From: a virus | Lineage: Duplodnaviria; Heunggongvirae; Uroviricota; Caudoviricetes | Virus record (IMG/VR): IMGVR_UViG_2671180643_000016 | Location: 1 to 11,733 of that record | Strand: one strand, 5' to 3' | Length of the DNA stretch: 11,733 nt | Shown here: positions 1,260-11,733 of the stretch, piece by piece | Numbering within the stretch: position 1 is the stretch's first letter | Layout: every line of letters starts with the position of its first letter | Notes under the pieces: generated by a model | Told to the model about the DNA's origin: nothing | Seen by the model: the letters and a program-made list of their open reading frames with translations, nothing else | Databases searched by the model: none | Position numbers and translations under genes: made by a program

Positions 1260-1919
1260 CTATCCTTCTTGGATTTTGATAAGCGTCAGATTTCCGCAGA
1301 ACACTGCCACTGTGTCGATGTACATCTGGTTTGCATATACCAGTGGGTGATGTGCTGGCGTATGACCGAAGATGAACAGATCGGCACCGGTTATCTCCGA
1401 GACAATACCGTCCTGCGCGTCGCTAATCCGCTCACGATTCCATATCACCATTTCTTCTGGTACTGGCTTATTGAATGCGTATTCGTTGTGCGGGTAGTCT
1501 GCGTGGCAGATGACGACCTTCTTATTGCCGGTAACCAGTTCGATAATCATCGGGAGGTTGGTAATCTTTGGCAGAAGGTATTTGAGTTGCACATCCTGCT
1601 CAGAATCAAGTTGGTGCCACCATCCACCGCCGTTTGACATCCAATGTCCGAAACTTCCGCCGTTGACCAGTGCATCCAGCATCATCTGCTCATGGTTGCC
1701 ACGAACAGCTCGGAACCACGGCATAGCAATCAAATCCAGGCATTCGACGTTTTCAGCGCCGCGGTCAACAAGGTCACCAACGGAAATAAGCAAATCGCGC
1801 GCCGGGTCGAATGAAACTTTGTCGAGTTCGTTCATCAGCAGCGTGTAGCACCCATGCAGATCGCCGACGACGAAGATATTGCACCAGTCAGCGCCATTGA
1901 TGCGTTGATATAGGTTCAT
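1260..1919 (-). CDS. Ser/Thr protein phosphatase, lambda PPase-like metallophosphoesterase
   Basis: Metallophosphoesterase motifs GDLHG, GDLVDRG, GNHE and a C-terminal GHTP; the translation aligns along its length with my recollection of lambda phosphatase. Start ATG 1919 overlaps the upstream stop (ATGA); SD-like GGGAG upstream. The ORF-track start at 2039 is an upstream extension. Confidence 0.85.
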
Positions 1920-2566
1920 GCAGCACGCTCCCGCCCCTGGTTGTCTGTTGGTGACAGCGGAGCATTGCTGAATGCATTTGTTAATCTGGCAATATCCAAC
2001 GCGTATCCAGGGTGTAGTTGCACTGCCGGGTCTTCGCACTGATTACCCCAAACATCGAAACCATGAGACGACTGGCGAGCGAACAGTTCAATGCGAGAAA
2101 CATCGCCTAACAATTGCACAAGTTTTTCACGAACGATATCTGGTTTTCTTGAATGCTCAAGCCGCGGTGCGGTAAATGACTGAACGATCCCTGCATTAAT
2201 GCGCGTAGGTAGTTTTCCCTTTACCGCAAACAGGCAATCTTCACTATTGGCGCGAGTCATGTGCCCCATACCCATAACCAGTTTATCTGGTTGTCGACTA
2301 CCACATTTTATCCACGTGAAGCCCTTCATGGTCATCAGACGGAATCCCCAGGCTTCAACAACTTTTAGCGCTTCGAGTGGTTGTGTTGGCACCCACCACA
2401 TGGCCAACAGACAGTTTTCATCGGCCAAATCCCACACAGGAAGGCGGCAGATATCCAGCACACTCATAACCGGATATTTAAAACCGGCACCGCGATTACC
2501 ATCTGCGGCTTTGTCACGATGTGTCCAAGGCGGATCTGCATAGATTAGTGTGTATTTCTTAGTCAT
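1916..2566 (-). CDS. DNA N6-adenine methyltransferase, MT-A70-like (orphan, phage Dam-type)
   Basis: 216-aa ORF with the catalytic DPPW motif near the N-terminus ([10 protein letters not shown]), typical of MT-A70/beta-class amino-methyltransferases. SD-like GGGGTGG upstream of ATG 2566. No adjacent restriction endonuclease candidate. Confidence 0.75.
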
Positions 2567-2825
2567 AAACCACCCCGCAACATCCTATACCGCTATAGTC
2601 TCCACGGCGAAGGCCGTTACCTTTTGTGATACATTGGTCCCTGCGAACCGCGATCCTTGCACGCTCAACATCACCAGAAGCAACATCCATACACTGAAGC
2701 CAAAGGTGAGCGGCAATGCGGAACTGCCCCTTTTTCTCTCTTTCAATCGCGCGTTTTTCGATCTCTATCGCCGCAGGAGTAACGGCGACAATCTTTGACG
2801 GACTGCGCATTGAAACCTTATTCAT
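2559..2825 (-). CDS. Hypothetical protein (88 aa from ATG 2825; the ORF extends to 2858 with a GTG start)
   Basis: Open frame between xis and the methyltransferase in the same orientation, with its stop overlapping the methyltransferase start by 8 nt. No recognisable motifs and a weak RBS. Confidence 0.35.
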   Translation of the reverse strand: MNKVSMRSPSKIVAVTPAAIEIEKRAIEREKKGQFRIAAHLWLQCMDVASGDVERARIAVRRDQCITKGNGLRRGDYSGIGCCGVVYD

Positions 2826-2967
2826 GTGATATTTTTCAAGTCGGCTTAACTTTCTCACTTAATCCAACCCTCTCTGAAAATTAATGCCAGCAGATAAAGC
2901 CATGCTGAAACAGAGGCCAGGAATAAGTACCATCCTGACCATTTGATCCAGTGCCTTAGCAGCGCAC

Positions 2968-3265: not shown

Positions 3266-4207
3266 TTACATAGATGTTTCGTTTAATTCTTCCCGACGAA
3301 CGCTGTAAACGTCGGTGGCTTTTGCCAGCAGTTCGTCATCATCTGAAAGTTTTTGTGCAATGTATTTGTAAGCCTTATCCAGTTCGGAGACAGTGCTGTA
3401 ATTCATCGCTGCGCTGGTAAAGGCCATCAGCATTTCTTCTGGATCACGGCTATCCGCTTTACGCGTTTGCTCATCAGGCTTTTTCACTGTTTTAGCGTTG
3501 ATCAGACTATTCATTCCCGCAGCCGTAGTTGTTTGCGGAGTAATGTCTCGCTCAACGCGCGGTGCCGTTTCCTGTAATTCGTCAGGTGTATAGACGCCCA
3601 TGATTACGTCAGGACAGTGCAAGCGAGACCAGCGTTTTGTCGCAAGGTATGCGAGTTGTTGTTTCGGATCGCTGGCCCAAAGTGTGGAGTTTCTTACCTG
3701 TGCCTGAGACAGCATTAACTCGAGCACTCGAGGTTGATCCTCTCCCTTCATGGTTGCCCATACGCGAACACCGCAGCCTTCTTCGTCTTTTATAGTCCAG
3801 CCTGGTGCGATATACGGATTGCCGTTTTTGGATGTTTTCTCAACAAACTTACCGATCACGCGTTCCCACGGCCCGAACCACTCGTAGTTGATGCGATCTT
3901 TTGTTGGCGACATTGTTGAGATAACTGCGTTTACTAATTGGGCTTCATAACCTAGCGTGCCGTTCACAACATGGGTTTTCTGAGCCACGGCAAACGGGTT
4001 CATTCCCCACTGCGCAGCCTGCATTGCCACGGCCATGCAATCAGCTGGTTTCCCGGCGAGGTGCGCCGGTACCGTTACGCGGCTTTGCGCCATTACCTCG
4101 GCGAATTTCATCAGTTGGTTCAAGCCGTCTGGGCTGAAAATAGTTGCAGCAGTGCCAGCGATTGCTGTGTCTACTGGTGCGTTGATGTTTGCGATGTTGT
4201 TGCTCAT
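3266..4207 (-). CDS. bet: Single-strand annealing protein, Red-beta/Bet-like (RecT/Red-beta superfamily)
   Basis: 313-aa ORF. Several segments resemble lambda Bet as I recall it (QWGMNPF vs QYGLNPW; LWASDPKQQL vs PWQSHPKRML; shared ERDITP). Start ATG overlaps the exonuclease stop (ATGA at 4204-4207); SD AGGA upstream. Confidence 0.75.
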   Translation of the reverse strand: MSNNIANINAPVDTAIAGTAATIFSPDGLNQLMKFAEVMAQSRVTVPAHLAGKPADCMAVAMQAAQWGMNPFAVAQKTHVVNGTLGYEAQLVNAVISTMSPTKDRINYEWFGPWERVIGKFVEKTSKNGNPYIAPGWTIKDEEGCGVRVWATMKGEDQPRVLELMLSQAQVRNSTLWASDPKQQLAYLATKRWSRLHCPDVIMGVYTPDELQETAPRVERDITPQTTTAAGMNSLINAKTVKKPDEQTRKADSRDPEEMLMAFTSAAMNYSTVSELDKAYKYIAQKLSDDDELLAKATDVYSVRREELNETSM

Positions 4208-5025
4208 ATGTACATATCCTGTTTACGTGCCCAGTCAGGGCGTTTAATAATTTCCACGCCACCCCATTCATCATTGATGCGGCATTCGTGATAGGTATTC
4301 AGATCCCGGCGGAACAGAGCGTGCCCGGTATCGACATCCTTCGCATCCAGCTCGAACACGCGTACCGGATACCGACCACAATCAATGCTTTCGCTCACGG
4401 CAAGAAAGAAAAAACCATGCGGCTGACCAGTAACCCTCATTGCGCCTTCACGGTACATTGCGTCCTGCACGTGGTAGCGGAATTCCTCGATGTGGCGAGC
4501 AAAACGATCCATATCTGCAACCTTTTTCACGTCGACGATTACGTTGTGCTCGTTCAGCCATTTGTCTGGACGAATTCGGCACAACTCACCCGTCTCTTCA
4601 TCGTTCCAGTACATTGATGCTTCGCAGTAACCAGGTGCTTCCAGCATCCAGCGTGCCGCCGGGTGAGCCATTGCGCTATCACGCATCAGCTCCAGTTTTC
4701 GCCACTGCTCTGCATCAAGTACCGAAATCCCCATATCCGCTACATCACGAATAAATGCCTCTTCGTCAGCTTTACCTTGTTTTGTCCGACGATCGAATTT
4801 CGGTGAAACGATGAAGCGTTTGTCAAACTCTCTAGGTTCCAGAAGCAGACAGTGCAGAGCAGTACCCATATCCAGTGCAGACTTATTCTCTTCGTCTTCC
4901 GGAGCGGCCTTCACCCATTTCAGAAGGGCAGGGTTCTTAGCCACCATATCTAGCTGCGACTTACTCACGCCGTCACCGGCGTGGTAGTCCTCGTTGCTGA
5001 TATCGAAATAAATTCCCGGATTCAT
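4204..5025 (-). CDS. RecE-like exonuclease (PD-(D/E)XK fold), partner of the annealase
   Basis: 273-aa ORF with a GIYFDISNEDYH N-terminal signature, a D-x-K core (VIVDVKKV) followed by FRYHVQDAMYREG and a C-terminal YHEC, consistent with the RecE C-terminal nuclease-domain family. Start overlaps the upstream stop (ATGA at 5022-5025). Confidence 0.75.
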   Translation of the reverse strand: MNPGIYFDISNEDYHAGDGVSKSQLDMVAKNPALLKWVKAAPEDEENKSALDMGTALHCLLLEPREFDKRFIVSPKFDRRTKQGKADEEAFIRDVADMGISVLDAEQWRKLELMRDSAMAHPAARWMLEAPGYCEASMYWNDEETGELCRIRPDKWLNEHNVIVDVKKVADMDRFARHIEEFRYHVQDAMYREGAMRVTGQPHGFFFLAVSESIDCGRYPVRVFELDAKDVDTGHALFRRDLNTYHECRINDEWGGVEIIKRPDWARKQDMYI

Positions 5026-5494: not shown

Positions 5495-5573
5495 GTTACC
5501 GTTGAGGTAATGATTATGCGTATTTGGTTTGATGTCAATAGATATGAGTTAAAAAAATTACCCATAAGGTAAT
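5495..5573 (-). promoter_or_regulatory. pL-like leftward promoter with two flanking 17-bp operator palindromes
   Basis: Minus-strand -35 TTGACA (5533-5538) with a -10-like CATAAT/TAATCA 14-16 bp downstream. Flanked by GTTACCGTTGAGGTAAT (5495-5511) and ATTACCCATAAGGTAAT (5557-5573); operator centres 62 bp apart. Confidence 0.55.
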
Positions 5574-5629: not shown

Positions 5630-6214
5630 TTATTGTTTGTTTTTTTCGTTCTGGTTGATGACAAATTCAATGTAACTTTCGATCTTTGCTTTCTCGGGTT
5701 CGGGTAACAATGCGTAGCGCGAGCGGTCATAGTTGATGGTCGCAGGGTCGTGCGGGTGAATCAGTAATTCATAGCCGTGACGCCCGAATGCGGATGCAAC
5801 ATTCTCCAGGGTGGAAATGGAAACGCTGACCTCATTGTTTAACAGGCGGCTGATTGTTACCTGGGCGACGCCGGATGCGCGGTGAAGTTTTCCCTGCGTT
5901 GAAAGGTCGCGGCTTTCGCTCATCCAGCGTTCCAGGTTGTGAGCCGCCAGCTGACCAATGTCGCTTGGGCCGACAGGCTGAAAACCTTCCTGAGAAAGCG
6001 AGCGATCGATATCAAGCCAGTTACGGGGTTTATTGGCGGCAGCTTCAATTTTTCGCGCAACCTGGTCGCCGATAACCTTCTTGCCAAGAGCCCAGCGGTT
6101 TACCAGATTTGCCTGAGTTCCAAGTTTTTCTGCCATCCGCGTCTGAACACCATTGAATTCACGGTCGATCAAGTCGTTGAGATTTTGCCTGCGGACGTCC
6201 TGGATACTTTTCAT
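5630..6214 (-). CDS. Prophage repressor, XRE-type HTH, with a second HTH-like segment and no S24 peptidase domain
   Basis: 194-aa ORF. N-terminal HTH (QTRMAEKLGTQANLVNRWALGKK) resembles 434/P22-type repressors; C-terminal half has another HTH-like stretch (VAQVTISRLLNNEVSVSISTLENVASAFG) and no Ser-Lys/GDSM autocleavage signature. Divergent from the Cro-like gene across an operator region. Confidence 0.7.
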   Translation of the reverse strand: MKSIQDVRRQNLNDLIDREFNGVQTRMAEKLGTQANLVNRWALGKKVIGDQVARKIEAAANKPRNWLDIDRSLSQEGFQPVGPSDIGQLAAHNLERWMSESRDLSTQGKLHRASGVAQVTISRLLNNEVSVSISTLENVASAFGRHGYELLIHPHDPATINYDRSRYALLPEPEKAKIESYIEFVINQNEKNKQ

Positions 6215-6268: not shown

Positions 6269-6333
6269 ATTACCCAACAGGTAAATGCACCCCATAGGTA
6301 ACTATCCTTGATTTTTGTTACCTTATGGGTGAA
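6269..6333. promoter_or_regulatory. OR-like tripartite operator region with divergent promoters
   Basis: Three 17-bp sites of the ATTACC-N5-GGTAAT family: ATTACCCAACAGGTAAA (6269-6285), weaker TGCACCCCATAGGTAAC (6286-6302), GTTACCTTATGGGTGAA (6317-6333). Candidate rightward promoter -35 TTGTTA (6315-6320), 17-bp spacer, -10 TATTAT (6338-6343). Confidence 0.55.
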
Positions 6334-6965: not shown

Positions 6966-7781
6966 ATGAGCAGACATGCAACAGATTGGGCTTGGGAGAC
7001 AGATCCAGGCAGCTCATCATTAAAGCTCATACTGCTCTCGATGGCTGACAGAGCCGATGAATATAACCTCTGCTACCCCAGCATAGAACGCCTCGTTAAA
7101 GACACTTGCCTGAATAAAAAAACCGTGCAGGCCGGGCTTATATCGCTCATGAAAATGGGGCTTATTTCAGATACCGGAGAGAGAAAGGGAGCGACAAAAA
7201 GAGTGCGGGTTTTCTCTCTTAATATAACCAAAAACGGGAACATTAAAGGCAACCTAGATGGGTGTAATGAACCCGAAAACGGTAATGTTCCCGAAAACGG
7301 GAATATACCCAAAAACGGGATGTTGAATGATCCCAAAAACGGGATGTTGAATGATCCCAAAAACGGGATCCAGAACCAGTCATATAACCAGTCATTTAAC
7401 CAAGAGAGGGAGAGCAGGACAAAAACCGGGGATTCTGTGCCTCATGACCCCGGCGCAAACAACGCCGTGATGAATAACTTTGTTCCTCCTGGTGGGCCAG
7501 GGCAATTAGGCAAATTTGTCATGCATGAACAATGGCAGCCATCAGATGACTTTCTTCGGAAAAGCTCATTGCAGGGGATCTACCTGGACAGTCTGCCAAC
7601 GGCACAGGAACTTGCAGAGTTCAGAATTTACTGGATGGCTGAGGGTAAGGCATACCATCAGGCACAGTGGGAGCAGAAGCTGGCAAGGCGGCTGCAGATT
7701 AGCAGACAGAAGCAATCAACATTACCTGATAACAACGTTCCGCACTGGAACAGCCCTGAAGCATGGGAGGATTTCTTGTGA
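6966..7781 (+). CDS. Replication initiation protein (lambda O functional analogue; N-terminal winged-helix-like, C-terminal DnaT-like)
   Basis: 271-aa ORF. N-terminal HTH-like region (LKLILLSMADRADEYNLCYPSIERLVKDTCLNKKTVQAGLISLMKMGLI), repetitive linker encoded by the iterons, C-terminal FRIYWMAEGKAYHQAQWEQKLARRL. Immediately upstream of the P-like gene with overlapping stop/start. Confidence 0.75.
   Translation: MSRHATDWAWETDPGSSSLKLILLSMADRADEYNLCYPSIERLVKDTCLNKKTVQAGLISLMKMGLISDTGERKGATKRVRVFSLNITKNGNIKGNLDGCNEPENGNVPENGNIPKNGMLNDPKNGMLNDPKNGIQNQSYNQSFNQERESRTKTGDSVPHDPGANNAVMNNFVPPGGPGQLGKFVMHEQWQPSDDFLRKSSLQGIYLDSLPTAQELAEFRIYWMAEGKAYHQAQWEQKLARRLQISRQKQSTLPDNNVPHWNSPEAWEDFL
7227..7369. 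repeat. Iteron array inside the replication initiator gene (putative ori)
   Basis: Direct repeats with core CC(C)(A/G)AAAACGG(G/T)A at 7227-7241, 7271-7286, 7289-7304, 7307-7321, 7331-7345, 7355-7369, spaced 18, 18, 24 and 24 bp. Includes an exact 24-bp tandem duplication GATGTTGAATGATCCCAAAAACGG (7319-7342 and 7343-7366). Confidence 0.6.
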
Positions 7782-8563
7782 ACAACGTTTTTACCGCGAT
7801 ACAAAACCGTGACGGAGAAGCCCTTTCTCGCATGTCAGGTTATGATCATCAGTACGTCAACAATGACAATGTGGTGAACATGTCAGCAGAGAGGCTTGTT
7901 GATGCCCTTTTCAAACAGCTGAAACAACTGTTTCCGGCGGCAGTGGTAACCAACCTGAAGACGCCAGAGCAGGAAGTCGCTGCAAAACAGCAGTGGATTG
8001 CTGCGTTTGCCGAAGGGGGGATCCGAACCCGTGAACAGGTTTCTGCTGGTATGCGCCACGCCCGCGCCAGTGAATCTCCGTTCTGGCCGTCGCCAGGGCA
8101 ATTTATCAAGTGGTGCAAAGACAGCAAGATGGTTCTTGGCGTCACCATTGACGATGTGATGGCGGAGTTTCACCGGTACAGCAAGGAAAAAAGTTTATAT
8201 CCTGGTGGTCCCGAAAGATTCCCGTGGCGGCATCCGGTTATGTACTGGGTCGTATGTGATACCCGCCGTGCAATGTATCAGCGCCAGCTTAGCGAGATTG
8301 AGGTTGAGAAACACGCGCGCAGGTTGCTCGATGATTGGGCGAAAAAGGTGGCTTCCGGACAGCAGATACCCGATCCGGTGATCAGCATACAGGCAAAGCC
8401 AGAACCCATGAGTACACCTCCGGACACAGGGAGAGACGTTTACCATCCACCAGGGCGAAGTTTCGGGTGCATGCCTAACGCCGCCACCCTGGGGGGAATA
8501 ACACCTGCGCAGTGGCTGATGGAGGAATACAGGCGAGGAAAGGCAGCAGGATTTATCAAGTAA
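7778..8563 (+). CDS. P: Replication protein P-like (DnaB helicase loader)
   Basis: Clear resemblance to lambda P as I recall it (QQWIAAFAEGGIRTREQVSAGMRHARASESPFWPSPGQFIKWC vs lambda RQWVLAFRENGITTMEQVNAGMRVARRQNRPFLPSPGQFVAWC). Preferred start GTG 7778 with SD GGGAGG 8 nt upstream, overlapping the upstream stop (GTGA); alternative ATG 7763 lacks an SD. Confidence 0.85.
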   Translation: MNNVFTAIQNRDGEALSRMSGYDHQYVNNDNVVNMSAERLVDALFKQLKQLFPAAVVTNLKTPEQEVAAKQQWIAAFAEGGIRTREQVSAGMRHARASESPFWPSPGQFIKWCKDSKMVLGVTIDDVMAEFHRYSKEKSLYPGGPERFPWRHPVMYWVVCDTRRAMYQRQLSEIEVEKHARRLLDDWAKKVASGQQIPDPVISIQAKPEPMSTPPDTGRDVYHPPGRSFGCMPNAATLGGITPAQWLMEEYRRGKAAGFIK

Positions 8564-8599
8564 TACCAGCGCGATAGCGCATTTTTTTACGTCTATATG

Positions 8600-8678
8600 A
8601 TTACCTTATAGGTAATAAAATATTCTAATTTCTATTGATTTTATGTCTTATGTGGTTTTTAATTACCTAAGGGGTAAA
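8600..8678 (+). promoter_or_regulatory. Operator-flanked promoter upstream of the DUF1064-like gene (same architecture as pL)
   Basis: ATTACCTTATAGGTAAT (8600-8616; perfect palindrome) and ATTACCTAAGGGGTAAA (8662-8678) flank -35 TTGATT (8635-8640), 17-bp spacer, -10 TTTAAT (8658-8663). Operator centres are 62 bp apart, as at pL. Confidence 0.55.
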
Positions 8679-8680
8679 TC

Positions 8681-9025
8681 ATGAGAAAACAGATACAGGC
8701 TCTTGGTCGACTCAAAACAGGCCAGATGAACAAAACAGAATCTGCGTATTGCCAGCACCTTGAGCTGCGTAAACGTGCAGGAGAAATCGTCTGGTATCGA
8801 TTTGAGGGTATCAAGTTGCGGTTAGCTGACAACACGTTCTATACGCCCGATTTTGCTGTGATGCTCGCCACCGGCGAGATGGAACTGCACGAAGTGAAAG
8901 GTTTCTGGACCGACGACGCCAGGGTGAAAACCAAAGTCGCCGCAGATCAGTATCCGTTCCGAATCATCGGGGTAACGGTTAAGCCAAAGAAAGCAGGTGG
9001 TGGCTGGAACATCGAAGAGTTCTGA
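8681..9025 (+). CDS. DUF1064-like phage protein, probable PD-(D/E)XK nuclease fold
   Basis: 114-aa ORF with D...E-x-K-like arrangement (TPDFAV ... ELHEVKG). SD AAGGGG upstream of ATG 8681. Family assignment is from memory. Confidence 0.6.
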   Translation: MRKQIQALGRLKTGQMNKTESAYCQHLELRKRAGEIVWYRFEGIKLRLADNTFYTPDFAVMLATGEMELHEVKGFWTDDARVKTKVAADQYPFRIIGVTVKPKKAGGGWNIEEF

Positions 9026-9086
9026 ATCGACGATCTTTTTAGTTATCAATGTAATCAATAAGTTATGTGGATAAGCGAGGGTAAAG

Positions 9087-9719
9087 ATGGAAAGTAATAT
9101 CAAAGGGTTAGTTGCCGCCGGGCATGAGATGGCTTCGGAACTGAAAGCAGAATGTGGTGCCGTTGATATGCGCAGTGTGGCAAAGCTGATCAGCGATTTG
9201 GCAACGCAACTGGAAGTGCAACTGGTGCGTGCTAATGCGCTGGCCGAAGACCACCAGAGAGCGATTGAGTCAATTAAGCAGGCTGATTCGGCTGTTAAGT
9301 TGGCACACGAGAAGTTTTCGGCGCTGGCGGCGGAGAATGCGGGGCTGAAACACGCAATGGCCGTAACTCTTGAGCATGTGTCGGTCACGGATGCAGGGCA
9401 GGCTGGTGTTGCTGCAATGATTATCAACGATGCCCTGCACCACAGCGAAACTCCAGCCACCGATGCTTTCCTGGCTGAAATTCGTGCGGAAGCACGCAAC
9501 GAGGGGATTAACTATACCGCAAGCCGTCTTGCTGCTGCTTTCAATCACGGATTTATCAATAAGTCTTTACGTGAAGTTTTCGACGTTACACGCATGATTC
9601 TGTCAGCAAAAGAAGAGTTAGCTAATGAATCGCATCCGATTGATGGCCTGTCCGGTGAATATGCAGAGAAATCCCTTGAAGAATGGGCGGAACGGCTTCG
9701 CAAAGGAGGCAGCCAGTGA
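9087..9719 (+). CDS. Hypothetical protein (210 aa), Ala/Leu/Glu-rich, predicted helical
   Basis: SD GAGGG 7 nt upstream of ATG 9087; stop TGA overlaps the GTG start of the downstream methyltransferase. No recognisable catalytic motifs. Confidence 0.55.
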   Translation: MESNIKGLVAAGHEMASELKAECGAVDMRSVAKLISDLATQLEVQLVRANALAEDHQRAIESIKQADSAVKLAHEKFSALAAENAGLKHAMAVTLEHVSVTDAGQAGVAAMIINDALHHSETPATDAFLAEIRAEARNEGINYTASRLAAAFNHGFINKSLREVFDVTRMILSAKEELANESHPIDGLSGEYAEKSLEEWAERLRKGGSQ

Positions 9720-10189
9720 CTGGACATGCAGCAATCCTCGACATGTGCTGTGGCAGTCGCATGTTCTGGTTCGATAAGAATGACGACCGGGCGATATTTA
9801 GCGATATCAGAAAGGAAGAGCACACATTGTGTGATGGACGACGCCTGATTATCAGTCCTGATCTGATAGCTGATTTTCGTGCACTACCATTTGCAGACGC
9901 ATCTTTTTCGATGGTTATATTCGACCCTCCGCATCTTGAGCGTGTTGGTGATAACGCCTGGATGGGAAAGAAATATGGACGGCTGAATAAAGATACCTGG
10001 CGTGATGATTTGCGGCAGGGATTTAAAGAAGCCTTTCGTGTGTTGCGTCCATCCGGAGTTCTGATTTTTAAATGGAATGAAACGCAAATACCTGTTCGCC
10101 AGATATTGGTACTGACCGACAGAAAACCTGTTATCGGTCAACGAACAGGAAAAAACGATAAAACCCACTGGATTATTTTTATGAAATAG
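9716..10189 (+). CDS. Small DNA amino-methyltransferase (phage Dam-like, putative N6-adenine)
   Basis: AdoMet-binding-like motif ILDMCCGSRMF followed by the catalytic-type motif FDPPH. Start GTG 9716 with SD AGGAGG 7 nt upstream, overlapping the upstream stop (GTGA). The ORF-track start at 9683 has no RBS. Confidence 0.6.
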   Translation: MTGHAAILDMCCGSRMFWFDKNDDRAIFSDIRKEEHTLCDGRRLIISPDLIADFRALPFADASFSMVIFDPPHLERVGDNAWMGKKYGRLNKDTWRDDLRQGFKEAFRVLRPSGVLIFKWNETQIPVRQILVLTDRKPVIGQRTGKNDKTHWIIFMK

Positions 10190-10335
10190 GCATCCAGTGA
10201 GTAGGTTCGTAAGGTTACAGATACGTATATCTGAATAATTAAATTCAGTTCTGTAAATAAAATTTAATCCTTAACCGGAGGGATTCCTGCACCCTCAGAA
10301 CATCAGGATACCGCCCGAAAGGGCGGTAATGAAAA

Positions 10336-10803
10336 ATGGCTGAATTAACCAAATGGCTACAAAACACGATTACCGGAATTGAAACGGTAGTAGACGATAA
10401 ATCGTTTGTATGTGATGAAATAGTATTCAAAATCGATGTGGTTAAAAACGTACTTACCGCATTTAAAGTCGCGCTGGTATCGCTGGAAGCCGAACCGGTG
10501 ACATGGCGATATCGCTACGTGAGAAAAGGCGTTACGAACTTTCAGGAGAAGCCGTGGGTTGGTGACTGGAAATATGTACCGACAAAAGAGAATTGCAACG
10601 ACAGGCCGAACTATGAAATTCAGGCGTTATTCACGGCCCAGCCTGTGCCACTGACACCCGAAGGATTGATTAAAGCGGTGCGCTTCTATGAACAGGTTAA
10701 GAGTGAAAATCCGCCAGTCGAAACCGGAGCATGGAAAGACGCTGTTGACTGGGTGCTCAAAGAGGCTTGTCAGGCTGTAAACATTGGCATCAAAGGAGAG
10801 TGA
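10336..10803 (+). CDS. Hypothetical phage protein (155 aa) sharing an N-terminal domain with the 10999 gene
   Basis: N-terminus LTKWLQNTITGIE...NVLTAFKVALVSLEA is paralogous to LTKEWLQNTITSIE...NMLTALKIALASLAA in the downstream 244-aa protein. Confidence 0.55.
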   Translation: MAELTKWLQNTITGIETVVDDKSFVCDEIVFKIDVVKNVLTAFKVALVSLEAEPVTWRYRYVRKGVTNFQEKPWVGDWKYVPTKENCNDRPNYEIQALFTAQPVPLTPEGLIKAVRFYEQVKSENPPVETGAWKDAVDWVLKEACQAVNIGIKGE

Positions 10804-10998: not shown

Positions 10999-11733
10999 AT
11001 GAATACTCTTACCAAAGAATGGTTACAGAACACGATTACCAGCATTGAGTCAGCACGGGATGAAATACCGTTCGGACTCGATGAAGATCAAAACAACATG
11101 CTTACCGCATTAAAAATTGCACTGGCATCACTGGCAGCAGTATCGGATGAACGAGCAGCCTATGAATTATTTATGGAGAAGCGTTTCGGGGAATCTGTAG
11201 ATCGCCGTAGGGCAAAAAATGGCGATAGAGAATACATGGCATGGGATATGGCGCTTGGCTGGATTATCTGGTGTCACCGCGCCGCCATGCTTCAGGGTAG
11301 CCAACCTGTAAGCCAAACTTACAACTTGCCAGAATTAATCGAAGGCATGGAAGTTTCCATTGATATAAGCACTTGTGATGCTGATTTAGGTAATCGCTAT
11401 TTCGGCACCGTCACCGAAGCGTTAGAACTTGATACAGCCAAGAATGGTTACATCCTCTTGGTTCAGGACGCAGAGCCAAACTTCGATGTAAATGGCAACT
11501 CTCCGGGAACTCCGGATAGTTGGATAAGCTGTAGTGATCGAATGCCTGAAAAGGGCCAGAACGTGCTTATTTCGGTGAATTTCGATAGCTCTCTGGTTGA
11601 ACCGCTAATATGCTCCGCACGCTATACCGGAAGCACCTTTCGGCGCGGAGATGCAACGATTAAGCCGGGTAATGGTATTGAGCAAGCAACTCACTGGATG
11701 CCGCTACCGGAACCGCCGCAGGAGGTGAAGTGA
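10999..11733 (+). CDS. Phage protein with paralogous N-terminal domain and DUF551-like C-terminal domain
   Basis: C-terminal DSWISCSDRMPEKGQNVLISV ... ATHWMPLPEPP resembles the DUF551 signature as I recall it; N-terminal about 45 aa paralogous to the 10336 gene. Stop TGA 11731-11733. Confidence 0.6.
   Translation: MNTLTKEWLQNTITSIESARDEIPFGLDEDQNNMLTALKIALASLAAVSDERAAYELFMEKRFGESVDRRRAKNGDREYMAWDMALGWIIWCHRAAMLQGSQPVSQTYNLPELIEGMEVSIDISTCDADLGNRYFGTVTEALELDTAKNGYILLVQDAEPNFDVNGNSPGTPDSWISCSDRMPEKGQNVLISVNFDSSLVEPLICSARYTGSTFRRGDATIKPGNGIEQATHWMPLPEPPQEVK

Follow-up and report, generated by a model that had tools for sequence, protein, structure and literature searches.

Genes and features of the locus

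The window, i.e. the whole stretch of 11,733 nucleotides that was analysed (IMG/VR record IMGVR_UViG_2671180643_000016), is a phiV10/epsilon15-type (Uetakevirus) prophage, of the E. coli phiV10 type. Three genes follow gene P at positions 8681-10189. The features considered here are as follows.

5630..6214, minus strand: cI-type repressor gene; two HTH regions, HTH_3; the equivalent gene in phiV10 is p40
8569..8588, plus strand: weak hairpin resembling a terminator, downstream of gene P; GCGC-GATA-GCGC, one A, seven T
8601..8615, no strand assigned: operator O3.1, TTACCTTATAGGTAA; 20 nt upstream of the -35 hexamer of P3; palindrome shared with PL and PR
8635..8663, plus strand: proposed promoter P3; TTGATT (8635-8640), 17-nt spacer, TTTAAT (8658-8663)
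8663..8677, no strand assigned: operator O3.2, TTACCTAAGGGGTAA; lies over the expected transcription start, an AGGGG ribosome-binding site and the final base of the -10 hexamer
8681..9025, plus strand: DUF1064 protein, 114 aa; T7-endonuclease-I-like PD-(D/E)XK nuclease; follows gene P
9087..9719, plus strand: Eae/Ead/Ea22-like mosaic protein, 210 aa; homology to Eae/EaE/ead-Ea22-like proteins
9704..9719, plus strand: coupling junction; AGGAGG (9704-9709) and GTGA (9716-9719), the stop of the 210-aa frame lying over a GTG start
9716..10189, plus strand: orphan class I SAM-dependent amino-methyltransferase, 157 aa; DPPH encoded at nt 9923-9934

The open reading frames lie where a preliminary description of the locus had placed them, including the third one, with its end at 10189. 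Its GTG start at 9716 gives the 157-aa product, and the RefSeq equivalent (a gene of 474 nt) has the identical start and the same overlap of 4 nt. The AGGAGG and GTGA reported in that description are read directly in the sequence, and its DPPH motif is found at residues 70-73. Overlaps of 4 nt are not special in the window: at least three other pairs show them, at 4204-4207, at 5022-5025 and, as ATGA, at 1916-1919.

Proposed promoter P3 and its operators

The sequence TTACC-N5-GGTAA occurs at six sites in the window for 0.21 expected, and none of 200 shuffles reached six. Four of these sites (5496, 5558, 6270 and 6318) flank cI at PL and PR. The other two are O3.1 and O3.2, so the operator-flanked promoter of the preliminary description is real. 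Their start-to-start distance is 62 nt, equal to that of the PL pair 5496/5558. Across 61 variants of this upstream region, one half-site of the four is conserved at 90% or more and the other three do not change at all, whereas the spacers are free to vary; at O3.1 neither half-site changes and every position of the 5-nt spacer does. O3.1 is also found in Salmonella phage SPN1S, which has an identical operator layout and identical half-sites.

The hexamers of P3 were assigned by hand from an alignment to PL (TTGACA-17-AATCAT, 5538-5510). In an ungapped register the two regions share 54 of 91 positions; the other placements in the window give a mean of 23.1 matches (sd 4.2), the next best reaching 44. 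Both hexamers are at least 90% conserved in the 61 variants. P3 was not called by a consensus promoter scan of the window because its -10 hexamer has no A at position 2. The hairpin at 8569..8588 was likewise missed by a consensus scan, because its stem has only 4 pairs. Its 38-nt fold has an energy of -8.4 kcal/mol (z -2.3), it is unchanged in the 61 variants, and a putative rho-independent terminator is annotated at the equivalent place in phiV10. A search of Rfam gave no match anywhere in the window.

The identity and the conservation of the operators are direct observations; repressor binding and the start of transcription are what we infer from them. At the level of sequence, a cI-repressor-controlled early promoter of the lambda PL/PR type is well supported at P3. 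The product of the cI-type gene is presumed to be the ligand of the six operators. Repressor control had been called putative; the identity of the operators, their PL-like geometry and their conservation among relatives are all in line with it. Operator and repressor show no variation that could be compared: the half-sites are the same in every relative sampled, SPN1S included, and the repressor is 98-99% identical across the 80 DUF1064 loci described below.

Transcription of the three genes would thus begin at P3 (about 8635-8663), a third repressor-controlled promoter located beyond the weak terminator that follows gene P. With a PL-like architecture, i.e. one operator upstream of the -35 and the second one over the -10 and the start site, all three genes should stay off in the lysogen under the cI-type repressor. 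In phiV10 the equivalent operon extends to a transcriptional regulator directly ahead of the terminase gene.

The arrangement recalls OL/PL and OR/PR of lambda, with identical inverted-repeat operators at three divergent or early promoters. As in lambda-type control, one operator lies across the -10 and another upstream of the -35; OR is tripartite. Unlike in lambda, a third operator pair and its promoter follow the replication genes within the rightward arm. In lambda, nin is reached through N antitermination, and no promoter is known at the position corresponding to P3. The paper on vB_EcoP_ZX5 mentions operators in general terms only.

The three gene products

The family assignments that follow were obtained directly, and every enzymatic activity is predicted from them. 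NCBIfam returned nothing specific for any of the three proteins.

For the first protein, the DUF1064 assignment of the preliminary description holds: PF06356 matches residues 18-92 at 31.3 bits, above the Pfam cut-off of 24.7. The protein also matches PHROG 190 "Holliday junction resolvase" (7e-43), and no PADLOC model matches it. Its residues D57, E71 and K73 align with the "TPDF ... E-T-K" of T7 endonuclease I, so that the triad is intact; the phiV10 and SPN1S homologues have the same three residues. The first catalytic glutamate, on the N-terminal helix, has an ambiguous position: MAFFT places E20 of T7 opposite M16 of the DUF1064 protein, with E21 and E28 as nearby candidates. DUF1064 has been assigned to the PD-(D/E)XK superfamily and co-occurs with RecT, DnaB/C and SSB (PMC1189080, PMC3424549); our literature search found no experimental paper and no biochemically tested protein for it.

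The protein is probably a junction-resolving enzyme. It has the PD-(D/E)XK core in common with T7 endonuclease I (gene 3), although the two are only weakly similar (E 0.2 by sequence, 30% in the alignment) and it is 35 residues shorter, without the C-terminal part of the T7 enzyme. Like resolvases it is a small early protein encoded beside replication genes, in a phage that also has RecT and a YqaJ exonuclease. It would most likely resolve the branched or Holliday-junction DNA produced by the phage's own RecT/YqaJ recombination and by replication. In the lambdoid nin region its functional analogues are Rap and RusA, whose role it would take; their folds differ from that of DUF1064 and T7 endonuclease I.

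The 210-aa protein had been described as an unknown. This stands as far as profiles are concerned, with no match in Pfam, NCBIfam or PADLOC, but the protein is no orphan. By tblastn it is 66.7% identical over its full length to an eae-like protein of phiV10, and its residues 76-207 are 35.8% identical to EaE of P22 (E 4e-14). It is also 43.9% identical to the "protein ea22" of BP9; many further records are annotated Eae, EaE or ea22, and many relatives are named ead/Ea22-like. PF13935 gives no match to the protein even at E<=10, while it matches an 81% identical relative, P0173, at 30.2 bits (cut-off 27) via a different central cassette. The alignment divides the protein into three parts: both ends are conserved (N-terminal aa 1-88, nt 9087-9350; C-terminal aa 123-210, nt 9453-9716), and the central cassette between them (aa 89-122, nt 9351-9452) is hypervariable. 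An AF2 model built with 30 relatives is all-helical with a long helix at 28-100, at low confidence (pLDDT 51.5).

This modular build fits what PMC10834534 describes for Ea22, in which an N-terminal domain is followed by a coiled coil and a C-terminal domain that varies; the variable part is thus C-terminal in Ea22 and central in the 210-aa protein. The two also differ in location: in contrast to P22 EaE and lambda Ea22, the 210-aa gene lies in the rightward operon after gene P, outside the exo-xis/ea region. The protein belongs to the shuffled Eae/Ead/Ea22 group of helical early proteins, its conserved ends surrounding a swappable cassette. Ea22 has a pro-lysogenic phenotype (PMC7093339), and by analogy with the lambda protein the 210-aa protein may modulate host or phage development.

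The methyltransferase matches PHROG 954 "DNA methyltransferase" (2e-86) and, in PADLOC, MTase_II (3e-73) and oMTase (4e-50); these three names are annotation labels, and the PADLOC methyltransferase models are derived from REBASE. Pfam returned only the generic Methyltransf_11/25 (Methyltransf_11 at 24.2 bits for a cut-off of 21.2), with no match to PF01555, PF02384 or PF05063; one relative shows PF01555 below threshold, at 18 bits. The 157 residues contain no target-recognition domain and no additional domain. The family conserves motif I (D9-x-C11-C12-G13) and keeps D70-P71-P72-H73 without exception. It counts 256 phage records over many phyla and 1,143 clusters at 50% identity (E<=1e-10), and it is 45-65% identical in phages of Streptococcus, Listeria, Vibrio, Acinetobacter, Corynebacterium and Porphyromonas. 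We found no paper on this small family, and a literature search for LygF gave genome announcements only.

As with "orphan Type II" methylases of the REBASE type, the enzyme is solitary, has no nuclease partner and is encoded in the early region of a temperate phage. Its motif IV, DPPH, is typical of exocyclic-amine methylation, as in orphan methylases. It differs from them by its size of about 150 aa without a target-recognition domain, and by a motif I D-x-C-C-G where orphan methylases have F-x-G-x-G. We read it as a mobile amino-methyltransferase, consisting of a catalytic core alone, whose gene has entered the variable position behind the Eae gene. Its most likely role is to methylate the DNA of the phage in the lytic cycle, and this would shield that DNA from restriction; RNA is a possible substrate.

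We consider it unlikely that RNA is the substrate, a reading in which the three genes would still form no unit and the enzyme would place an exocyclic-amine methyl (e.g. m2G, m6A) on rRNA or tRNA, tuning host translation in lytic growth. The structure model (pLDDT 73, N-terminus disordered) gives generic class I matches by Foldseek against the PDB, the top ones being RNA m2G enzymes (Trm11). A profile of 36 diverse relatives against PDB sequences gives PH0226 (9e-5) and Trm11 (0.1) as best matches. The best (D/N)PP(Y/F/H) neighbours are the Trm11 m2G10 tRNA methyltransferase and an RsmD-like protein; a universal substrate would suit the very strong cross-phylum conservation, and the lack of a DNA-recognition domain points the same way. 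As a precedent, an MT-A70 enzyme of a phage had carried the annotation of a DNA methylase before it turned out to be a 16S rRNA methylase (PMC10810198). However, these matches are weak (TM ~0.45, E ~0.1) and the model is poor at the N-terminus. Moreover, the DNA methyltransferases M.BceJIV and TTHA0409 were also matched by Foldseek, weakly as well, and the annotations of PHROG and of the REBASE-derived PADLOC models class the family as DNA methyltransferases.

Co-inheritance of the three genes

We counted how often the three genes are found together. Among the 80 DUF1064 loci closest to this one in IMG/VR, gene P is upstream in 80 and the next gene is Eae-like in 80, while the methyltransferase is present in one; DUF1064, for its part, occurs in three of the 80 closest methyltransferase loci, both samples being skewed to close relatives. 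The same Eae C-terminal domain was found in 117 loci with at least 500 nt of downstream sequence, and the methyltransferase is adjacent in 4 of them. In 5,426 complete E. coli genomes the methyltransferase occurs in 945, the junction of DUF1064 with the Eae N-terminus in 474 and the entire stretch in 4. The mosaic structure and the absence of co-inheritance are thus seen directly.

A junction of the Eae C-terminus/methyltransferase type is nevertheless present in 303 E. coli genomes. At 99% identity or more, 254 matches to the junction were obtained for 266 to the methyltransferase gene, so there is some linkage of Eae and methyltransferase at shallow depth. The near-identical E. coli allele is usually preceded by the 3' end (~65 codons) of an Eae-type gene. 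In O157:H7 TR01 such an allele (at least 99% identical), located behind an Eae fragment, belongs to a prophage remnant and is a pseudogene; for that genome at least, the linkage is therefore a relic of descent and no working pair.

These counts bear on the proposal that the methyltransferase is targeted or activated by the 210-aa protein, or by the conserved C-terminal domain of that protein, acting as its subunit, with the coupling ensuring 1:1 synthesis as for the MT-A70/PNB-2 enzyme of phage PA8. The methyltransferase is indeed a catalytic core only and is nearly always coupled translationally to the preceding ORF, and the 303 genomes with the junction would fit a partnership. So would the Eae-type C-terminus of the upstream ORF in 19 of 79 methyltransferase loci. 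An upstream-encoded specificity subunit of a phage methyltransferase is on record (PMC10810198), and the top structural neighbours Trm11 and Bud23 work with the partner Trm112, solved complexes being among the matches. But the upstream ORFs of these 79 loci fall into 17 unrelated clusters, and no Eae-like gene is among the features annotated under the matches in the Streptococcus, Listeria, Vibrio, Acinetobacter, Corynebacterium and Porphyromonas phages. Reciprocally, the methyltransferase is absent from 113 of the 117 loci having the C-terminal domain, and its gene is broken in at least one representative of the junctions at 99% or more (O157:H7 TR01). The extensions of longer relatives are of mixed kinds (DUF6291, a zinc ribbon, a coiled coil with a DUF551-like tail, mis-called starts), and a Rosetta-stone check found none that resembles the 210-aa protein, which has no similarity to PNB-2 either. 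Finally, in most of the 80 methyltransferase loci a GTGA or ATGA overlap with a purine-rich site is kept whatever the upstream ORF. The coupling therefore belongs to the methyltransferase module and is no mark of partnership. A partner role for the 210-aa protein is very unlikely.

In a broader form of this proposal, the ~150-aa DPPH methyltransferase would be a bare catalytic subunit taking its specificity from whichever protein is translated just upstream, with the Eae C-terminal domain as one adaptor and a functional 4-nt coupling, and it might act on RNA like the PA8 enzyme; we give this scant credence. The model for it is M.EcoPA8orf6770P-PNB-2 of the Stx phage PA8, a 16S rRNA methyltransferase whose second subunit is required for specificity (PMC10810198). 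There too the methylase is a catalytic core whose gene is co-transcribed with, and overlaps, a small upstream ORF. But the PA8 enzyme is an MT-A70 protein with DPPW, unlike the DPPH methyltransferase at 9716-10189, which has no PF05063. Its homologue in the window is another methylase, at 1916-2566 (83% identity). Neither PNB-2 nor PNB-1 of PA8 resembles the 210-aa protein or any other part of the window, and the ORFs found ahead of the methyltransferase are not similar to them either. A two-subunit methyltransferase of the PA8 type was rejected on the lack of a conserved upstream partner (17 clusters; 4 of 117 loci) and of PNB-2 similarity.

Least credible of all is a small restriction-modification or defence module with DUF1064 as restriction-type nuclease and the methyltransferase as cognate protector: a PD-(D/E)XK fold and an amino-methyltransferase share an operon, a DUF1064 homologue is deposited as "putative restriction endonuclease" (SPC32H/SPC32N) and PADLOC labels the methyltransferase MTase_II, but the methyltransferase is missing from 79 of the 80 closest DUF1064 loci, as is DUF1064 from 77 of the 80 methyltransferase loci, and a restriction enzyme almost always without its methylase is not viable. 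In addition, PADLOC gives no match for DUF1064, its nearest solved relative is the junction resolvase T7 endonuclease I, and the operators should silence the operon in the lysogen, which would make host defence by it impossible. Such a pair was rejected since co-inheritance fails (1 and 3 of 80 loci; 4 of 5,426 genomes).

The stretch 8681-10189 is thus a chance mosaic in which a probable junction-cutting nuclease of the backbone stands next to an Eae/Ea22-type protein from a shuffled family and a small, mobile orphan methyltransferase. There is no indication that the three genes work as a single unit, and their content is ordinary. Very probably they are independent passengers of one delayed-early transcription unit of a phiV10/epsilon15-type prophage and form no functional cassette. 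Of the two possibilities offered by the preliminary description, an ordinary nin-region gene set is borne out, DUF1064 and the Eae-like gene being a fixed backbone after gene P (80 of 80 loci) and the methyltransferase a mobile orphan. The other, a protective or anti-restriction module with the 210-aa protein as methyltransferase partner, is not supported, with just 4 adjacencies in 117 loci. It also finds no PADLOC model for DUF1064 or the 210-aa protein, and the latter is unrelated to PNB-2, the sole published partner of a phage methyltransferase. The term "cassette" does not fit a methyltransferase that lies beside DUF1064 in just 1 and 3 of the 80 loci.

The three-gene arrangement is unimportant as such because its adjacency is an accident of phage mosaicism, and to label the stretch a defence or anti-restriction module is mistaken. 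Two of its components are of modest use in themselves: the methyltransferase as a very widespread 150-aa phage enzyme without a recognition domain, and the Eae/Ea22-type proteins in that the sharply bounded hypervariable cassette between their conserved ends suggests a diversifying interaction with a host or phage target. As to the control of these genes, phages of the phiV10/epsilon15 type appear to transcribe the delayed-early operon from a third promoter that resembles PL and is controlled directly by the repressor, which would account for the absence of lambda-style N/nin read-through in these phages.

The prophage region and its three genes

By megablast, the region belongs with podoviruses of the phiV10/epsilon15 type (genus Uetakevirus) and with E. 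coli prophages of that type. In order, the window carries an integrase gene, a leftward operon comprising phosphatase, MT-A70 methylase, AlpA, RecT and YqaJ exonuclease genes, a cI-type repressor gene and a cro-like gene. The right arm then runs from an O-like initiator gene with iterons to a lambda-P-like helicase loader gene, the three genes considered here, and ead/DUF551-type genes.

1916-2566, minus strand: MT-A70/DPPW methylase
2559-2858, minus strand: PerC-like ORF (PF06069)
5630-6214, minus strand: cI-type repressor
8681-9025, plus strand: DUF1064 protein (114 aa)
9087-9719, plus strand: 210-aa Eae/Ea22-type protein
9716-10189, plus strand: small DPPH methyltransferase
10336-10803 and 10999-11733: ORFs sharing an N-terminal module

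The features named in the preliminary description are real and correctly located, including the AGGAGG (9704-9709), the GTGA overlap (9716-9719) and the DPPH codons (9923-9934). Each of the three proteins falls in a family for which many genomes already have annotations. The mechanical ORF list starts the third ORF at ATG 9683; RefSeq starts the equivalent gene at GTG 9716 (474 nt, overlapping its upstream neighbour by 4 nt), and so do the family alignments of the methyltransferase. Since at least three other gene pairs of the window overlap by 4 nt (4204-4207, 5022-5025 and, with ATGA, 1916-1919), the GTGA overlap carries little weight.

Within the O-like initiator gene, positions 7220-7411 hold five or six direct repeats, each some 18-24 nt long (consensus ...CCCAAAAACGGGA...), which look like origin iterons. 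At the other end of the arm, ORFs 10336-10803 and 10999-11733 have an N-terminal module of about 50 aa in common (DNA repeats 10352-10498 and 11018-11146, 71-76% identical) and different C-termini, that of the second being DUF551; this is a further case of ead-type domain shuffling. A strong GC hairpin, ACCGCCC-GAAA-GGGCGGT (10309-10328), lies 8 nt 5' of ATG 10336 in a fold of -24.2 kcal/mol (z -3.0), with no T-run beside it on either strand. In some relatives it sits at the right edge of the methyltransferase module.

Gene order in related loci

The three genes had been proposed to form a translationally coupled cassette, possibly a protective or anti-restriction module. Gene order does not support a functional cassette. 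For each anchor gene we retrieved its 80 nearest loci in IMG/VR and looked up the positions of all three genes. Around DUF1064, gene P is upstream and an Eae-like gene downstream in 80/80 loci (the part matched varies between the first 40 residues and all 210), and the methyltransferase is present in 1/80. Around the methyltransferase, DUF1064 is found in 3/80, and the ORF directly upstream falls into 17 unrelated clusters (79 loci), whose members include 19 Eae-type ORFs, 18 LygF-type ORFs and an MT-A70 methylase. Almost every one of these 79 loci has the methyltransferase start overlapping the upstream stop (GTGA or ATGA), with a purine-rich site before it. Where the same Eae C-terminus is followed by at least 500 nt of sequence, the methyltransferase comes next in only 4 of 117 loci. 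Thus DUF1064 and the Eae-like gene are backbone, the methyltransferase is cargo in a variable slot behind them, and the coupling overlap travels with the methyltransferase module.

The same genes were counted among 5,426 complete E. coli genomes.

Occurrence among 5,426 complete E. coli genomes (junctions and stretch at 80% coverage or more)
Methyltransferase gene: 945
DUF1064/Eae-N junction: 474
Eae-C/methyltransferase junction: 303
Whole stretch 8560-10340: 4

Of the 303 matches to the Eae-C/methyltransferase junction, 254 are at least 99% identical. The one that was inspected, in E. coli O157:H7 TR01 (locus L248, 4973-5670), consists of a 75-aa Eae fragment followed by a methyltransferase allele of at least 99% identity with an internal stop, within a degraded prophage remnant adjoining yfdR. 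If this remnant is typical, it would explain many of the 254; so many near-identical matches point to shared descent for most of them, though this is short of proof.

Operators and a proposed third early promoter

The window holds six copies of the palindrome TTACC-N5-GGTAA, where 0.21 would be expected.

5496-5510 and 5558-5572: operators flanking the leftward promoter PL, TTGACA-17-AATCAT (5538-5510), called by the promoter scan
6270-6284, about 6287-6301, and 6318-6332: two or three operators between cI and cro, around PR, the rightward promoter
8601-8615 and 8663-8677: operators upstream of the DUF1064 gene

The last pair is spaced by 62 nt, as is the PL pair. When the region upstream of DUF1064 is aligned to PL in register, 54 of 91 positions are identical (other placements average 23, sd 4.2, and the next best gives 44), and TTGATT (8635-8640) and TTTAAT (8658-8663) coincide with the two hexamers of PL. 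This putative promoter was missed by the consensus scan. In 61 distinct upstream sequences from 80 relatives, three of the half-sites never change and the fourth, like the hexamers, is at least 90% conserved, while the operator spacers differ at almost all of their positions. All three operator regions are also present in Salmonella phage SPN1S. The predicted repressor control is therefore well supported, by the shared operator class at PL, PR and 8601/8663, the PL-like layout and this conservation.

After gene P, a weak hairpin with a run of seven Ts is invariant among relatives, and the phiV10 annotation places a terminator there; in phiV10 the delayed-early operon extends as far as the regulator gene that immediately precedes the terminase gene. 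We infer that a third, PL-like, repressor-controlled promoter, within the rightward arm, heads the delayed-early operon. The paper on vB_EcoP_ZX5 contains no description of such a promoter.

The three proteins and the partner question

The DUF1064 assignment passes the Pfam threshold (31.3 bits against 24.7), and PHROG 190, labelled Holliday junction resolvase, also matches (7e-43). Sequence comparison with solved structures finds only Bax1 and entries for T7 endonuclease I (E 0.2-1.2); D57, E71 and K73 align on the active-site residues "TPDF ... E-T-K" of the T7 gene 3 protein, the placement of the first catalytic glutamate being uncertain. DUF1064 has been assigned by fold recognition to the PD-(D/E)XK superfamily and co-occurs with RecT, DnaB/C and SSB (PMC1189080, PMC3424549). 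A literature search found no biochemical study of the family.

The 210-aa protein has no match in Pfam, NCBIfam or PADLOC. Homologues bearing the names Eae, EaE, ea22 or ead/Ea22-like nevertheless occur in phages of the P22-like, Stx and Uetakevirus groups and in thousands of E. coli records. When 30 close relatives are aligned, conservation exceeds 90% over residues 1-88 and 123-210; in place of residues 89-122 (nt 9351-9452), relatives more than 90% identical on both sides have unrelated inserts, from 0 to about 100 residues long. This sharply bounded hypervariable cassette is an unusual pattern. Relatives with another central cassette reach the Pfam Ead_Ea22 threshold; the window's protein does not. 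The conserved junction TPATDAFLAEIRA, at the right boundary of the cassette, recurs in other Eae-type ORFs. An AF2 model, unreliable at pLDDT 51.5, shows helices throughout, including a long one at 28-100. Lambda Ea22 has been described as having an N-terminal domain, then a coiled coil and a C-terminal domain that varies, and as exerting a pro-lysogenic effect (PMC10834534, PMC7093339).

The methyltransferase matches PHROG 954 "DNA methyltransferase" (2e-86), the PADLOC models MTase_II (3e-73) and orphan MTase (4e-50), and Pfam Methyltransf_11 (24.2 bits). The exact protein is on at least 1,000 contigs. The family is not confined to enterobacteria: by tblastn, 256 phage records carry it at 45-65% identity, with hosts in Streptococcus, Vibrio, Acinetobacter, Porphyromonas, Listeria, Gordonia, Enterococcus, Staphylococcus and Corynebacterium, and an exhaustive search gave 1,143 clusters at 50% identity (E<=1e-10). 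The conserved unit, of about 150 residues, has a conserved D-x-C-C-G, an invariant D-P-P-H and no recognition domain; longer members carry heterogeneous extensions. Among enzymes with a comparable motif IV, Trm11 (tRNA m2G10) and an RsmD-like protein came closest in the structure search and the profile search of solved structures. DNA methylases rank lower, and either DNA or RNA may be the substrate. In two IMG/VR loci (L050, L052) the small methylase lies directly 3' of an MT-A70-type methylase like 1916-2566, with a 4-nt overlap; therefore the two phage methylase types can be neighbours.

That the 210-aa protein is a partner of this methyltransferase has a precedent that keeps the idea alive in principle: in 2023 a Stx-phage MT-A70 "DNA methylase" was shown to act as a 16S rRNA methylase only with PNB-2, encoded just upstream (PMC10810198). 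Such a partnership is nevertheless very improbable here, because 17 unrelated families precede the DPPH enzyme and it is spread across phyla without annotated Eae-like neighbours; moreover neither the 210-aa protein nor any other ORF found upstream of the DPPH methylase is related to PNB-2. The window's homologue of the catalytic subunit in that phage, PA8 (M.EcoPA8orf6770P), is the MT-A70 methylase 1916-2566 (83% identity over 187 aa), not the DPPH enzyme, and differs from the PA8 subunit in the C-terminal 29 residues or so. The ORF upstream of and overlapping this methylase (2559-2858) is PerC-like and is not related to PNB-2. The PrpA-like phosphatase gene, in turn, has its likely ATG (1919-1917) within an overlap with the MT-A70 stop codon.

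Only three points in this region merit follow-up: the putative third operator-controlled promoter, the pan-phage methylase without a recognition domain, and the Eae-type protein's hypervariable cassette.
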